A stretch of DNA of 64,000 nucleotides from an uncultured Bacillota bacterium (GTDB lineage Bacteria > Bacillota_I > Bacilli_A > RF39 > UBA660). Positions 40,200 through 48,701 of this stretch are shown here, piece after piece. The position numbers and the translations under genes are program-made. The stretch lies in the NCBI GenBank assembly GCA_947165005.1, contig CAMUYN010000003.1, positions 25,584-89,583 of the forward strand, read 5' to 3'. The notes beneath the pieces were generated by a model. It saw only the letters and a program-made list of their open reading frames with translations. It was not told where the DNA came from and made no database searches. Within the stretch, counting starts at the first letter, position 1; each line of letters opens with the position of its first letter.

Positions 40200-41417
40200 C
40201 TAGAAAATAACTTTCATAAATACTTTTTTGCCTTTTTGTAAGATTATATATCCATCTTGTAAATCTTCTTCAGTTATTACTTTATCAATATCATTTAATT
40301 TTTCTAAATTTAAAGAAAGTCCATTTTGATCAATTAATCTTCTTCCTTCTGATTTAGATGGAACTAATCCTACTTTTACGAGTAAATCTAGTATATTAAT
40401 ACCTAAATCTTCTTTTGATAAATTTATTGTTTCTATATCTTTAGGTAATCCAGTTAATGAAACAGACAAGAAACTTTCTTCTGCACGTTTAGTATCTTCT
40501 TCTCCATAAAATATTTTAGTTATTTCTCTAGCAGCAAAAAGTTTAGCTTCTCTTGGATTATTTTTAATATCTAATTTAGCTATTTCATCAAGTGGTACTC
40601 TTGTATTATTAACCAATAATAATTCTATCATTTCATCAGGTTGATTCATTATTTCTTCAAACATTTTATTTGCTCCAGTACCTAAGAATACTCCTGTTCC
40701 TCTTGATTTAGACATTAATGTTCCATCTATTGGATTTTCCATTAAATTATTAGCTACTACAAATTTATCTTTATCTCTATATTTCTTTAATAAATCTCTT
40801 CCTACTAAAGCATTGAATATTTGATCTGTTCCACACATTTCAACATCTATATCAAGTGCAACACTATCATATCCTTGTAACATTGGATAAATAAATTCAT
40901 GCATAAATATTGGTTTATTCTCTTCCATCCTCTTTTGGAACATATCTCTTACTAATAATTGCCCTACAGTGGCATGTGATAGTAAATCTATCATATCCTC
41001 TGAAGTTAATTTATCCATCCATTCACTGTTAAATACTACATGTGTAGGATTTTCTTTATCTTCAGTATTGATAAGAGGTTTAATACTTTCTATCCAATGT
41101 TCCGCATTTTTTTTTGCTTCTTCTCTTGTTAATCTAGCTCTTGCAGATGTTCTATCTGTTGGATCACCAATACAAGCAGTAAAATCTCCAAATAATATAT
41201 ACACTTCATGTCCTAATTTTCTAAATTCATCCAACAACATAAAGTTTTTTGCATGGCTTAAATGTAATGATGTTCCTGTAGGATCTGCACCTATATAGAA
41301 TTTTAATTTTCTATCTAATAATGCTTCCTTAAATTCTTCTCTTGATGGAAGTATTTGTCTTACTATTCCCCTATCAAGTATTTCATCAATTCTTTTTGAT
41401 TTTTCTTCTCTTGTCAT
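40200..41417 (-). CDS. tyrS: Tyrosyl-tRNA synthetase paralog (divergent; HLSH and LMSKS variants of the class I motifs; C-terminal S4 domain)
   Basis: GADPTGTSLHLSHAKNF, CIGDPTDRTS, LMSKSRGTGVFL and a C-terminal S4-like RRLIDQNGLSLN; 405 aa. Preceded by a T-box leader with a UAC specifier. Confidence 0.75.
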   Translation of the reverse strand: MTREEKSKRIDEILDRGIVRQILPSREEFKEALLDRKLKFYIGADPTGTSLHLSHAKNFMLLDEFRKLGHEVYILFGDFTACIGDPTDRTSARARLTREEAKKNAEHWIESIKPLINTEDKENPTHVVFNSEWMDKLTSEDMIDLLSHATVGQLLVRDMFQKRMEENKPIFMHEFIYPMLQGYDSVALDIDVEMCGTDQIFNALVGRDLLKKYRDKDKFVVANNLMENPIDGTLMSKSRGTGVFLGTGANKMFEEIMNQPDEMIELLLVNNTRVPLDEIAKLDIKNNPREAKLFAAREITKIFYGEEDTKRAEESFLSVSLTGLPKDIETINLSKEDLGINILDLLVKVGLVPSKSEGRRLIDQNGLSLNLEKLNDIDKVITEEDLQDGYIILQKGKKVFMKVIF

Positions 41418-41419
41418 AT

Positions 41420-41640
41420 TTCCTCCTTAAACAAAAAAAGTTCCTATAATATAAGGACGAATTACCGCGGTACCACCTTATTTCATAGAAACTATGCACT
41501 CTAATTATAACGGAATTACCGATTAAATTCAGAATATGTAATTCATTCTTAAAAATACACTAGTTTTCACCAACCACTAGTTCTCTAATAATATATTTTA
41601 AAAACTACTAATTATTCATCAACATTTAATTACATTCTAA
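41420..41640 (-). promoter_or_regulatory. T-box riboswitch leader (Tyr specifier UAC) with promoter, upstream of the tyrS paralog
   Basis: -10 TTATAAT at rc 41640-41646. Stem I contains AGAGA and GGUGAAA-like elements; specifier loop GAAUUACAUA. Conserved T-box sequence AAUUAGAGUGCAUAG...AAGGUGGUACCGCGG; terminator/antiterminator and U-tract before GGAGG-ATG. Confidence 0.8.
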
Positions 41641-41679
41641 TTATAACACATATTTTATAAAAATAAACAAAAAAAAGTT

Positions 41680-42975
41680 TTAATTATTATTCTTAACTAA
41701 AACTTTCATGTAATTCTTTTTTCCTTTTCTTACTACAAATCCACCGTCTGTAATATCAGAAGGAGTAACCATATTTTGTTCTTGTTGCATTCTAACGTTG
41801 TTTAAATATATACCCCCTTGTTGCAATAATCTTCTAACTTCTGATTTTGATTTAGCCATTTTTATTAATACCATTAATTCTTCAATAGGAATACCTTCTC
41901 CCATAACATCTGCACTTATTCCACATTGAGGCATGTTTTCTGAATTACCAGCATTTGAGAATACTTCTTCACTTGCTTTCTTTACTTTTAAAGCTTCTTC
42001 TTCTCCATGTACTAATTTTGTTACTTCAAAAGCCATTATTTTTTTAGCATTTCTTATATCTTCAGTACACATTCTCTTTATATCTTCCATTTCATAATTA
42101 CTAAAGAATGATAATAATCTTTCTACGTCTTCATCATATGAATTCATAAACATTTGATAGAAATCATAAACAGTTGTTTTTTCTCTTGAAACCCATAATG
42201 TTCCACTAGCTGTTTTACCCATTTTTTCTCCATCTGCCTTTATTAATAACGGACATGTTAATGTTTGTAATTGTCTATCTTCTAAACCATTTGCAAAATC
42301 CATTTTTCTAGCCAATTCTACACCTGCTATCATATTTGCCCATTGGTCAGAACCACCAACTTCTAATACGCACCCATATTTTTCATTTAAATATACAAAG
42401 TCATAAGCTTGCATTAACATATATCCCATTTCTAAGAATGTTAATCCACCAGATTCTAATCTGTTTTTATAGCAATCAGTAGCTAACATTTTATTAACAT
42501 TAAAATGTACTCCAACTTTTCTCATAAAATCAACATATGATTCTGGATTAATCCAATCTGCGTTATCTAATATTAGTGCAGGATTATCTCCATCAACATC
42601 TACGAATCTCTTAACTAATTCTTTCACTTCTGCTTTATTGTATGCTACTTGTTCTTTAGTTAGCATCTTTCTCATATCTCTTTTTCCAGTTGGATCACCA
42701 ATTAAAGCTGTAGCCCCTCCGATTACAATTATTGGATGATGTCCCTTCTCTTGTAATCTTCTTACCATTGTAAGCGCAAAGAAATGTCCTATATGTAAAC
42801 TATCCGCTGTTGGATCTATACCTATATAAAACACTTTTGGTTCACTATCGTTTAACATTTCTTCAATTACTTTTTCATTTGTAGCTTGATATACATATCC
42901 TCTTTCTCTTAGTATATCAAAAGGTTTTTTTTCCATATTAACTCCCCTCTCAAATAACATTGCATATATTAACAT
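41680..42975 (-). CDS. tyrS: Tyrosyl-tRNA synthetase (canonical)
   Basis: IDPTADSLHIGH, GGATALIGDPTGK, KMGKT and a C-terminal S4 domain (RRLLQQGGIYLNNVRM); 431 aa (about 416 aa from the better start MEKKPFD). Confidence 0.9.
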   Translation of the reverse strand: MLIYAMLFERGVNMEKKPFDILRERGYVYQATNEKVIEEMLNDSEPKVFYIGIDPTADSLHIGHFFALTMVRRLQEKGHHPIIVIGGATALIGDPTGKRDMRKMLTKEQVAYNKAEVKELVKRFVDVDGDNPALILDNADWINPESYVDFMRKVGVHFNVNKMLATDCYKNRLESGGLTFLEMGYMLMQAYDFVYLNEKYGCVLEVGGSDQWANMIAGVELARKMDFANGLEDRQLQTLTCPLLIKADGEKMGKTASGTLWVSREKTTVYDFYQMFMNSYDEDVERLLSFFSNYEMEDIKRMCTEDIRNAKKIMAFEVTKLVHGEEEALKVKKASEEVFSNAGNSENMPQCGISADVMGEGIPIEELMVLIKMAKSKSEVRRLLQQGGIYLNNVRMQQEQNMVTPSDITDGGFVVRKGKKNYMKVLVKNNN

Positions 42976-42990
42976 TTTTATATCAAAATG

Positions 42991-47110: not shown

Positions 47111-47250
47111 TCACCCCTCATAAATAATTTAATTTATTTTATCTCCATATATATCAATTGTCAATAACATTCAAAGAATATATATAAATTTTTTTCAGTT
47201 GCAAAAAAATATAAAAAGTTGTATAATAAGCACTTAAAAGGAGAAATTAT

Positions 47251-47682
47251 ATGAATACTAATGAAAAGAACAAAAAAATAAATATTATTATATTACCACC
47301 ATATATGAGAAAAATTGATAATAATAAATTAATACTTTTATACACAAAAATAAAACCTATTATATCAATTCAAGAAAAAAAATATAAGTTAAATACTTTC
47401 ACATTGGAGCAATTATTAAAAAATTATAATTGGAATAGTGAAGAAAACAAGACAGAATTAATTGATAGTAACAGCATTGAAATAATCACCGATTTCCTAT
47501 GTTTACATACACACAAAGAGCAAGCATCTTTAGAAGAAATATTATCACAAATCCCAGATGATATAACTAATTTTGCTAACGCTTTTGAAGTGATTGAAGC
47601 ACCTGAAAAAAGAGAGAACTTGATTGTACATGCTAAAGGATTACATTTATCAAAAATCAGAATATATAAAATCAATGAATAA
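47251..47682 (+). CDS. Hypothetical protein (143 aa)
   Basis: Strong promoter TTGCAA-17-TATAAT and AAAGGAG RBS. Followed by a bidirectional terminator (GAAGC-UUAU-GCUUC) at 47690-47718. Confidence 0.55.
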   Translation: MNTNEKNKKINIIILPPYMRKIDNNKLILLYTKIKPIISIQEKKYKLNTFTLEQLLKNYNWNSEENKTELIDSNSIEIITDFLCLHTHKEQASLEEILSQIPDDITNFANAFEVIEAPEKRENLIVHAKGLHLSKIRIYKINE

Positions 47683-47698
47683 TATTAAAAAAAGAAGC

Positions 47699-48448
47699 TT
47701 ATGCTTCTTTCTTTGTTTTCTTTTTTGATGAAGGTGTTTTTTCTTTATATAACCATAAAGCATTACCTTCACTCTTACCCAATTTCTTTCCAGTAGAATC
47801 TACGATTAATGGTACTGAGAAAGCATATACTTCAGTATTATTTAATTTTTTTATTAATTCAATACCTGTAGTTAAATTGCCCCATTGATCAGAACCTCCA
47901 AATTGAAGAGTTGCTCCATAGTTTTCAAATATATATTTAAATTCATATCCTTGCATTAACATATAAGAAAATTCTGCATATGATATGCCTGATTCCATTT
48001 GTCTTTTAACTAAGTCTTTATTAACCATATATGCAACATTTACATATTTTCCTATATCTCTTAAGAAATCTACATAGTTATAATCTTTAAACCAATCATA
48101 GTTATTTAATACTAATTGATCTTCTCCAAATAACTTTTTCATTTGTTTTTGTATTTTAGAGAAATTATATTCTACTTCAGATACTTCTTTCTTTTCTCTT
48201 TCTTTAGTTCCTCTTGGATCACCAACTCTACCTGTAGCTCCTCCAACTAAAACTATTACCTTATGTCCCGCTCTTTTTAATCTTTCTACCATTAAAAATG
48301 TTGGTAATTATCCAATATGAAGAGAATCTGCGGATGGATCTGCTCCTACATAACAGGTAAGATTTCCACTATTTAGTTTTTCTTCTAAATCTTCTCCAGC
48401 TACATCTTTAATTAAACCTCTCCATTTTAAGTCTTCAAATAAATTCAT
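47699..48448 (-). pseudogene. tyrS: Third tyrS copy disrupted by an in-frame TAA replacing the second His of the HIGH motif ([11 protein letters not shown])
   Basis: ATG at 48448 with AAGGAGG RBS. The translation [46 protein letters not shown] stops at TAA (48310-48308), then continues in the same frame as LPTFLMVERLKRAGHKVIVLVGGATGRVGDP...KLGKS to 47699. Confidence 0.7.
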
Positions 48449-48451
48449 ATA

Positions 48452-48701
48452 TCCTCCTTAAACAAAAAAAGCCCCTATAAATGTAAGGACGAATTACCGT
48501 GGTACCACCTTACTTCATAGAAACTATGCACTCTTAATTATAACGTAATTAACGTGTTAACTATGATATTTGTATTTCATTAATATATTAATTTAAGTTT
48601 TCACCAACCACTTAATCTCTACAAATAATATTATTAATTACTTATAATATCTTCTTCATTAACTATAAATTAATTATATTTTATTTTTAAATTTTAGTCA
48701 A
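48452..48701 (-). promoter_or_regulatory. T-box riboswitch leader (UAC specifier) with consensus promoter, upstream of the tyrS pseudogene
   Basis: TTGACT (rc 48696-48701), 17 nt, TATAAT (rc 48673-48678). Contains GGUUGGUGAAAAC and the T-box sequence AAUUAAGAGUGCAUAG...AAGGUGGUACCACGGUAAUUCGUCCUUAC, then a U-tract before the RBS. Confidence 0.8.

Follow-up and report, generated by a model that had tools for sequence, protein, structure and literature searches.

The biosynthesis of tyrocitabine in Lactobacillus iners (Patel et al. 2022, as reviewed in PMC13235161) is specified by the tyb genes and involves the glycation of tyrosine with phosphoribosyl pyrophosphate (PRPP) in an Amadori reaction by TybC, reduction by TybE, and the addition of AMP by TybB, which resembles a tyrosyl-tRNA synthetase (TyrRS), following which a nonribosomal peptide synthetase (NRPS) of adenylation-peptidyl carrier protein-condensation (A-PCP-C) architecture acylates the product to a prodrug (PMC13235161). 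Tyrocitabine inhibits post-transcriptionally, at the level of translation, and its target was stated to be unknown in a 2026 review; the tyb genes alone were expressed in Escherichia coli and Pseudomonas putida, and no TyrRS was named among them (PMC13235161). Here, we describe a tyb-like operon which, together with two intact TyrRS genes, lies within the former native tyrS gene of an uncultured Bacillota bacterium, in a 64,000-nucleotide (nt) stretch of contig CAMUYN010000003.1 that is hereafter referred to as the window.

Self-resistance based on an aminoacyl-tRNA synthetase (aaRS) is exemplified by mupM (mupirocin), borO (borrelidin), a second SerRS (albomycin), agnB2 (agrocin 84), and an indolmycin-resistant TrpRS. 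The underlying principle, whereby an antibiotic cluster is accompanied by a further copy of the target, has been detailed previously (PMC5570205, PMC13515044); a literature search for self-resistance involving TyrRS yielded nothing useful. Additional TyrRS genes are known from two other settings: TyrZ of Bacillus subtilis is a second TyrRS, regulated by a T-box and by MarR, with a higher selectivity for L-Tyr (PMC9437257), and a T-box-controlled tyrS gene is found in the tyrosine-consuming tyramine (tyrosine decarboxylase, TDC) cluster of enterococci (PMC3315439).

The explanation which best accounts for the present locus, and to which we assign a probability of roughly 0.55, is that of an island in which a tyb-like operon, predicted to produce an inhibitor of TyrRS, is combined with TyrRS genes that replaced the native tyrS and would protect the producer. 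An earlier reading of the same DNA (the original prediction) had listed more than one TyrRS gene, each under different regulation, a pair of T-boxes specific for Tyr, and a third copy that is no longer functional, all of which are present in the window. The four-gene operon upstream of the 418-amino-acid (418-aa) TyrRS was absent from that account, and the mechanism it advanced, namely, altered substrate handling by one enzyme and selection against the third copy, was found to be largely unsupported.

Gene content of the island and its tyb-like operon

The island spans ~7.5 kb (47729 to 40198) and is bordered by codon 240 of tyrS on one side and by the final 31 codons of this gene on the other. 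Its cargo comprises a 143-aa open reading frame (ORF), an operon of four genes whose leader contains an ORF of 41 codons, and the genes encoding a 418-aa and a 405-aa TyrRS. All relevant TyrRS, operon, and leader genes at the locus are located on the minus strand, and the operon consists of the following genes:

45875 to 46897, minus strand: class Ic aaRS-like adenylating enzyme of 340 aa, predicted to be TybB-like (Pfam tRNA-synt_1b, 56.8 bits)
44752 to 45906, minus strand: TrpD-like phosphoribosyltransferase with a predicted TybC-like role (Pfam Glycos_transf_3, 119.7 bits)
43755 to 44771, minus strand: Zn-dependent medium-chain dehydrogenase/reductase with a predicted TybE-like role (Pfam ADH_N, 61.5 bits)
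42991 to 43758, minus strand: HAD-IIB (Cof-type) phosphatase (Pfam Hydrolase_3, 80.7 bits; TIGR01484)

The likeness to the tyb genes of L. iners (PMC13235161) resides in a core set of a TyrRS-like adenylating enzyme, a PRPP-dependent enzyme that glycates tyrosine, and a reductase, as the operon encodes a TybB-like class Ic enzyme with adjacent TybC-like and TybE-like genes, for which activity on tyrosine is predicted. The phosphoribosyltransferase scores 156.5 bits against TIGR01245, below the TrpD equivalog cut-off of 199, and its gene is adjoined by that of the dehydrogenase here and in nearly all related loci. The exact tyb order of aaRS-like enzyme, phosphoribosyltransferase, A-PCP-C NRPS, and dehydrogenase is found in L105 (related loci and contigs are designated by L numbers), the aaRS-like protein of which is 38% identical to that of the window and which is the only one of the surveyed loci to harbor an NRPS. 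Because the enzyme set matches tyb chemistry and the tyb gene order is found in the family member L105, the assignment of 42991 to 46897 as a predicted NRPS-less tyb-like operon is considered well supported by its architecture.

The 340-aa aaRS-like protein is neither a TyrRS nor a TrpRS by any NCBIfam cut-off, scoring far below each, and should not be named as either in annotation. It belongs to a rare family (222 representatives among 1.84 billion) with the invariant motifs PH[ML]GT, GDLDSYNAR, and PKMSKS, and its AlphaFold2 model (predicted local distance difference test, pLDDT, of 85) finds its best structural matches in archaeal TyrRS and TrpRS, with template modeling (TM) scores of 0.65 to 0.76. 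Members of the family occur as fusions with a TrpD-like phosphoribosyltransferase (proteins P0425 and P0453, of 717 and 736 aa) and with a HAD phosphatase (P0212, of 590 aa). The possibility that the aaRS-like protein regulates the phosphoribosyltransferase, as in a HisZ/HisG-like pair, was considered and set aside because the ATP-binding motifs are strictly conserved.

In the lineage of L034, L035, and L040, genes for a sulfotransferase and a short RelA/SpoT-like protein of 481 aa are located directly before the aaRS-like gene (L034, 7550 to 9992), and the product may accordingly be decorated in a different manner or the pathway be connected to stringent signaling. In L057 (4470 to 7538), a 1023-aa fusion of a beta-lactamase-fold serine hydrolase to an ABC exporter (membrane and ATPase parts) is encoded 3′ of the tyb-like core and represents a candidate export or prodrug-processing device.

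Upstream of the operon, the following leader elements were identified:

46965 to 47164, minus strand: operon leader, with a promoter-like TTGACA-17-TAAAAT (a consensus match) at 47136 to 47164
46980 to 47105, minus strand: 41-codon leader ORF (MNNIKVLV...TLTYSV), also called in L029 and L123

A terminator-like hairpin at 46965 to 47010 (-18.2 kcal/mol; z, -4.9) holds the 3′ end of the 41-codon ORF, and a Tyr codon is positioned inside this hairpin, two positions before the stop. The arrangement could provide for ribosome-mediated attenuation which senses Tyr-tRNA.

Predicted product and proposed role of the linked TyrRS enzymes

The product of the operon is proposed to be a tyrocitabine-like, N-glycated analogue of tyrosyl-adenylate. 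The phosphoribosyltransferase would couple PRPP to the amino group of tyrosine and, after an Amadori rearrangement, the sugar would be reduced by the dehydrogenase, following which the phosphatase would remove the 5-phosphate and the aaRS-like enzyme would adenylate the carboxylate. Such a compound would mimic Tyr-AMP and would thereby inhibit TyrRS. The 418-aa TyrRS, expressed without tRNA sensing, would represent the producer's insensitive target copy, and the T-box-controlled 405-aa TyrRS, perhaps of an intrinsically insensitive class, would add charging capacity when uncharged tRNA-Tyr rises. For a pathway that does not include the NRPS prodrug step, an insensitive TyrRS would constitute an alternative form of protection. 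The pattern fits that of target-copy self-resistance known for other synthetase inhibitors because a cluster predicted to produce a Tyr-AMP mimic is nearly always accompanied by an intact TyrRS, and one of differing lineages; by analogy with such systems, we put the chances that the 418-aa enzyme, and possibly also the 405-aa enzyme, acts as a target-copy immunity gene at about even.

Linkage of TyrRS genes to related clusters

A metagenome survey identified 72 loci, corresponding to 54 non-redundant groups at 90% identity, and a TyrRS gene was present in the locus in 36 of these groups. As would be expected of a target copy, the extra TyrRS adjoins the cluster and the linkage is kept: 12 of the 13 well-flanked groups (at least 4 kb upstream and at least 6 kb downstream) possess a linked TyrRS gene, at a distance of 4 to 4500 nt. 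An exact-protein look-up placed a TyrRS scoring above the curated cut-off of the TIGR00234 equivalog (113.8 bits) next to the cluster in all four independent architectures (4/4), i.e., the window and L029, L034 and L035, L036 of Clostridium beijerinckii (beside transposase genes), and L038 and L039 (beside conjugation genes, which in L038 specify TraG, PrgI, and TrbL). Three or more lineages are represented among the linked enzymes (418-like type 1, a 442-aa type-2-like form, and 405-like), all of which keep the catalytic motifs. Furthermore, the layout of operon, TyrRS, T-box, and TyrRS recurs in L034, L040, and L104, where both copies are of type 1, with a mutual identity of 84% in L034.

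In the window and in L029, L034, L040, and L104, the gene immediately after the cluster encodes a T-box-controlled TyrRS, an arrangement that would also be consistent with the main rival explanation, in which the operon uses up tyrosine and the linked TyrRS enzymes keep tRNA-Tyr charged or report tyrosine status, TyrRS itself not being inhibited. A precedent is offered by the enterococcal TDC cluster described above (PMC3315439), and no resistance-type substitutions are visible. This explanation is nonetheless regarded as unlikely, as it does not account for the absence of a T-box from the cluster copy (the 418-aa enzyme and its orthologs), for the recruitment of TyrRS from at least three lineages, or for the TyrRS genes that are also carried by non-Firmicute clusters without T-boxes, and the tyb product reportedly inhibits translation (PMC13235161).

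In two unrelated clusters, a tRNA-Tyr (GTA) gene adjoins the cluster TyrRS (L038, 4096 to 4180; L104, 13226 to 13309). Together with the near-universal linkage and the retained catalytic motifs, this would suit a biosynthetic partner which, sometimes with tRNA-Tyr, supplies Tyr-AMP or Tyr-tRNA(Tyr) as a pathway substrate. However, the published pathway needs neither tRNA nor a cluster TyrRS (PMC13235161), and the expression of the tyb genes with no named TyrRS argues against a biosynthetic need for one; the linked enzymes are, moreover, of unrelated lineages rather than of one co-evolving lineage, and the aaRS-like enzyme itself keeps its adenylation motifs. A role in supplying substrate is thus considered distinctly unlikely, and target-copy protection is retained as the preferred interpretation of the linkage.

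The only well-flanked tyb-like core with no linked TyrRS, that of L074 and L075, has a divergently oriented gene for a non-discriminating AspRS (NF003483, 450 bits; L075, 8391 to 9809), which lies 180 nt upstream of that for the aaRS-like enzyme. Its presence may be a coincidence or may denote a variant cluster with another amino acid specificity.

The two intact TyrRS genes of the island

The features relating to the two intact TyrRS genes are as follows:

42966 to 42994, minus strand: promoter-like TTGACA-17-TAATAT with TG, before the 418-aa gene (consensus match only)
41680 to 42975, minus strand: type-1 TyrRS ORF (TIGR00234, 381 bits; HIGH and KMGKT)
41680 to 42936, minus strand: 418-aa type-1 TyrRS, linked to the cluster, without a T-box, candidate immunity copy
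41450 to 41631, minus strand: mosaic Tyr (UAC) T-box leader of the 405-aa gene (Rfam RF00230, 99.2 bits)
40200 to 41417, minus strand: T-box-controlled 405-aa TyrRS of the HLSH/LMSKS subfamily (TIGR00234, 314 bits; Pfam tRNA-synt_1b and SYY_C-terminal)

Both proteins are full length, exceed the TIGR00234 cut-off, and possess the Pfam SYY_C-terminal domain. The first had been described as a canonical TyrRS of 431 aa at a locus of its own; its HIGH and KMGKT motifs and its profile score are upheld, but its true start is probably at 42936, according to gene calls on identical or near-identical contigs (L001 and L029), which yields 418 aa, and it is located at the end of an operon, ~55 nt from the preceding gene, so that it either ends or immediately follows the four-gene unit. 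With the TyrRS that occupies the equivalent position in the L034 and L040 clusters, it shares 82% identity.

The 405-aa enzyme is as described previously, with its own Tyr-specific T-box and the motifs HLSH, LMSKS, and CIGDPTDRTS. Although these motifs had been taken to indicate altered substrate handling, HLSH, LMSK[ST], and GDP[ST][DE] are near-invariant in its best 120 homologs (56 to 100% identity), with HLSH in 110/120 and LMSKS in 102/120, and the hosts of these homologs include Alphaproteobacteria, Gastranaerophilales, Bdellovibrionales, Prosthecochloris, Exiguobacterium, Lachnospiraceae, and others. Because the motifs are near-invariant across the family, the alignments identify the 405-aa enzyme as an ordinary member of a conserved TyrRS subfamily spanning several phyla and not as a product of local degeneration; such ordinary family variation had been named in the original prediction itself as the finding that would speak against it. 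An ortholog of 406 aa in L033 (81% identical) stands alone behind its own T-box. Distant homologs from Patescibacteria (36 to 45% identity) carry H[IL]GH and KMGK[ST] but have GDPTDK in common with it.

A further enzyme with HLSH and LMSKS motifs, which shares 50% identity with the 405-aa protein, is encoded beside a distant tyb-like cluster in L111 (11075 to 12298, minus strand) that also harbors a second, HIGH-type TyrRS. The window and L111 thereby provide two unrelated settings in which this subfamily is found near tyb-like clusters, and it may have a specific relation to such clusters.

The 405-aa and 418-aa proteins are 30% identical, and the third TyrRS copy shares 39% identity with the former's 418-aa neighbor and 27% with the 405-aa protein itself. 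The three genes are therefore not recent duplicates, and these values mark them as members of three TyrRS lineages of old divergence that now occur side by side.

The solved structures nearest to the 405-aa enzyme are those of type-2 (TyrZ-like) TyrRS, with HLGH and KMSKS, and B. subtilis TyrZ might accordingly be invoked as a model, the window genes then being tyrS/tyrZ-type stress paralogs unrelated to the operon, with an HLSH enzyme of altered selectivity (e.g., against D-Tyr) and a third copy silenced by selection. We consider this improbable, given that the 405-aa motifs are family-wide, that the third copy is a truncated native remnant split by the island (see below), and that the TyrRS linkage of the operon family (12/13) is far above chance. 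The D-Tyr analogy, as originally drawn, also overlooks the adjacent tyrocitabine-like operon, the relatives of which are almost always linked to TyrRS.

Fate of the native tyrS gene

On either side of the island, the remains of the native gene are represented by the following features:

48673 to 48701, minus strand: promoter-like TTGACT-17-TATAAT of the native tyrS leader (consensus match only)
48482 to 48657, minus strand: Tyr (UAC) T-box of the native tyrS leader (RF00230, 87.6 bits; E value, 2e-18; full model coverage)
47699 to 48448, minus strand: third TyrRS-like reading frame, with an in-frame TAA at 48308 to 48310
47730 to 48448, minus strand: 5′ fragment (codons 1 to 240) of the native 411-aa tyrS, in which TAA replaces the Gln of HIGQ
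47687 to 47729, minus strand: junction of ~8 codons, a stop, and a terminator (hairpin, -9.7 kcal/mol), fused in frame to the tyrS fragment
40105 to 40197, minus strand: 3′ remnant of the native tyrS, consisting of the last 31 codons (LLVNKETSLYNKYVIIRRGKKKYYLVIMED) and the stop codon

The undisturbed arrangement is seen in the island-free relatives L119 to L122, which carry a YtxH-like gene, a Tyr T-box, a single 411-aa tyrS (HIGQ), a 123-aa gene, a glycosyltransferase gene, and bipA; in L119, the order is a trmB-like gene, three small genes, the YtxH-like gene, the T-box, and tyrS (411 aa), followed by the 123-aa gene, the glycosyltransferase gene (opposite strand), bipA, and the gene for pyruvate:ferredoxin oxidoreductase (PFOR). 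The window is colinear with L119 on both flanks of the island. Positions 48726 to 47730 (the leader and codons 1 to 240) share 91.5% DNA identity with L119 5167 to 6161 and are colinear with it, and positions 40197 to 39730 are 82% identical to L119 6586 to 7053 (the last 31 tyrS codons and the 123-aa gene). The 3′ stump starts 3 nt past the stop codon of the 405-aa gene, beside the short shared string ATGAAAGTT, and native codons 241 to 380 are absent from the window locus.

The two remnants flank the island in a layout colinear with L119, which therefore places ~7.5 kb of foreign DNA within the old tyrS gene. Because the island separates codon 240 from the last 31 codons, it is well supported that the native enzyme was destroyed, and its function would have been taken over by the island-borne TyrRS genes.

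The third copy had been presented as a tyrS gene with a promoter, a T-box, and a ribosome-binding site (RBS) that was killed by a single nonsense codon. The promoter-like site, the RBS preceding the frame, the in-frame TAA, and the T-box are indeed present (the last scoring 87.6 bits, below the Rfam gathering threshold), but the frame is not that of a full-length gene: TyrRS homology ends at codon 240 (window position 47730), the anticodon-binding and S4-like C-terminal part (~170 codons) is missing, and the TIGR00234 score of 187.7 bits extends over profile positions 61 to 248 only. The fragment matches the intact L119 gene at 227 of 238 residues, and its intact homologs are TyrRS of 410 to 411 aa (80 to 95% identity; at least 120), which are very numerous in metagenomes and for which the only named source is a metagenome-assembled genome (MAG) labeled "Bacilli bacterium."

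Nor does the TAA replace the second His of a HIGH motif, as was proposed, since the motif of this lineage, which also carries K[LI]GKS, is HIGQ in 117/120 relatives and the Gln codon is CAA in L119; the TAA is therefore explained by a single C-to-T transition at that Gln codon. The ratio of nonsynonymous to synonymous substitution (dN/dS) between the fragment and the intact L119 ortholog is 0.075, compared to 0.076 for the housekeeping gene bipA, and the inactivation is therefore too recent to show relaxed selection. From these comparisons, the TAA is interpreted as a later single-base change in an already dead fragment, which argues for passive decay of a gene split by the island in place of the suggested selection against its expression. 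Stop codon reassignment or programmed readthrough of the TAA was rejected, as the frame is truncated in any case and all other genes conform to normal code 11.

A split gene and a TAA may, in principle, both originate from a chimeric or erroneous assembly, the more so as the source is probably a low-coverage metagenome assembly and the coverage of contig L123 is ~5x. This is very improbable: L123, a second contig (ENA sample ERZ14209547), is 100% identical over 3578 bases comprising the fragment, the TAA, and the junction, another contig is 99.98% identical over 9.5 kb, and both the island and the 3′ remnant recur in L029, L030, and L031, which were assembled from different samples. The TAA at 48308 to 48310, for which a sequencing error had been named in the original prediction as a possible refutation, is thus very probably genuine.

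Recombinant leader and comparison of strains

Both T-box leaders contain a Stem I with a UAC specifier, a T-box sequence, and a terminator. Relative to the RF00230 gathering threshold of 93 bits, the leader of the 405-aa gene scores above and the native leader below. In the register of the Rfam alignment, the specifier reads GAA-U-UAC-A in the former and GAA-A-UAC-A in the latter, and the terminator hairpins, each followed by U7, have predicted energies of -19.3 and -20.5 kcal/mol, respectively. The native leader is colinear with that of L119. From the Stem II region to the ATG, the 405-aa leader is 91% identical (97/107) to the native leader, compared to 62% in Stem I, and it is ~60% identical to the leader of the L033 ortholog. 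This mosaic pattern therefore indicates that the coding sequence of the 405-aa enzyme was joined to the resident tyrS leader, of which it retains the 3′ half; on the basis of these identities, the leader is recombinant and marks a recombination joint, its 5′ half being of a different origin. The promoter-like sites listed above are cited as consensus matches only because a promoter scan of this AT-rich region is of no statistical value (99 sites versus 97.9 expected from shuffles, i.e., no enrichment).

The following features are relevant to the comparison of strains:

47251 to 47682, plus strand: 143-aa ORF at the left end of the island, kept in L029 and L123
47726 to 51298: 3.57-kb segment missing in the related strain L029 (blastn of the window versus L029, and junction sequences)

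The 143-aa ORF, which has no Pfam or NCBIfam match, is kept in every strain observed to carry the island. L029, L030, and L031, which derive from other samples and encode a 405-aa protein of 94% identity, possess the island along with the 3′ stump but lack the 3.57-kb segment and, with it, the 5′ tyrS fragment. This segment contains genes for a 449-aa membrane protein and a 350-aa TasA-like protein, the native leader, and the tyrS 5′ fragment. Because window and L029 are 92% identical across the island and 83.5% identical across the left flank (blastn), recombination is suggested as the means by which the island is transferred among diverged strains. The 3.57-kb segment may be read as a gain in the window or as a loss in L029; we infer, and favor, a recent recombination in which the donor carried the island and the recipient resembled L119, because the dN/dS of the fragment is unchanged and the codons, stop, and terminator at the junction correspond to the end of the YtxH-like gene of L029 and L119.

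The flanks of the island harbor an array of paralogous secreted proteins (34424 to 39711 and 48755 to 49807, minus strand) with the N terminus ...SLGVAFAAFS(T/G)TLNINGTA(T/A)V, followed by a signal peptidase-like gene (Peptidase_S26, a weak Pfam match) and a DUF5305 gene. This array resembles a TasA/SipW-type operon, and its paralog content varies between strains. At the left end of the window (2 to 15523, minus strand), an ORF of more than 5174 codons, which runs past the window end and has an N-terminal signal/anchor-like segment, presumably encodes a giant surface protein.

Strength of the proposal and implications

Several observations weigh against the proposed island-borne target-copy system. 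No NRPS, phosphopantetheinyl transferase, or exporter gene was found within 40198 to 47729, and the likeness to the L. iners Tyb enzymes is drawn via domain families, gene order, and a review only. One well-flanked cluster (L074 and L075) lacks any TyrRS within 10 kb. In the 418-aa TyrRS, the active-site residues of which are fully canonical, a resistance determinant is not apparent, because the seven fixed differences between seven cluster-linked and three T-box-linked type-1 TyrRS (a small and phylogenetically confounded sample) are all confined to the C-terminal S4-like domain. The loss of the native tyrS may be a mere by-product of the recombination site of the island, and, the view of the genome being 64 kb, further tyrS copies may exist elsewhere.

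The near-constant linkage nevertheless suggests TyrRS as the target of tyb-like products. We tentatively propose, with somewhat less than even confidence, that TyrRS is the target of the tyrocitabine class, that NRPS-less members are protected by insensitive TyrRS copies, sometimes together with tRNA-Tyr, that an island of this kind can drive the replacement of a native tyrS, and that HLSH/LMSKS enzymes are possibly intrinsically insensitive to adenylate analogues. The linkage thereby provides a specific and directly testable hypothesis for the tyrocitabine target, for which the 418-aa and 405-aa enzymes are candidates for resistance and the 411-aa enzyme is a candidate for sensitivity, all of near-isogenic origin. 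The locus also represents an unusually clear natural case in which an essential synthetase has been replaced by horizontally acquired copies, as the two ends of the former gene have been left in place, together with a recombinant T-box, as evidence. For annotation, HLSH/LMSKS should be treated as a normal subfamily signature, and HIGQ as the native motif of another lineage.

Comparison with known systems

The island shares the core enzyme set of the L. iners tyb genes and differs from these in its HAD phosphatase and in the presence of one or two full-length TyrRS genes. As in target-copy self-resistance systems, a second, catalytically intact synthetase lies beside a cluster whose product is predicted to resemble a reaction intermediate; unlike in those systems, resistance is only putative here, the native gene has been physically destroyed, and there are two replacements, one of which is under T-box control. 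The presence of two TyrRS types in one Firmicute-like genome, with a T-box on the type-2-like copy, is reminiscent of B. subtilis tyrS/tyrZ, from which the locus differs in that no MarR gene is located nearby and the copies are island-borne, in the context of a biosynthetic operon, and replace the native gene. With respect to the solved type-2 enzymes (HLGH and KMSKS), the HLSH signature marks a separate sub-branch. Finally, as in the enterococcal TDC cluster (PMC3315439), a TyrRS-like gene under T-box regulation is located beside the genes of a pathway that consumes tyrosine; the TDC cluster, however, comprises a decarboxylase, an antiporter, and one linked TyrRS gene, whereas the island carries two.

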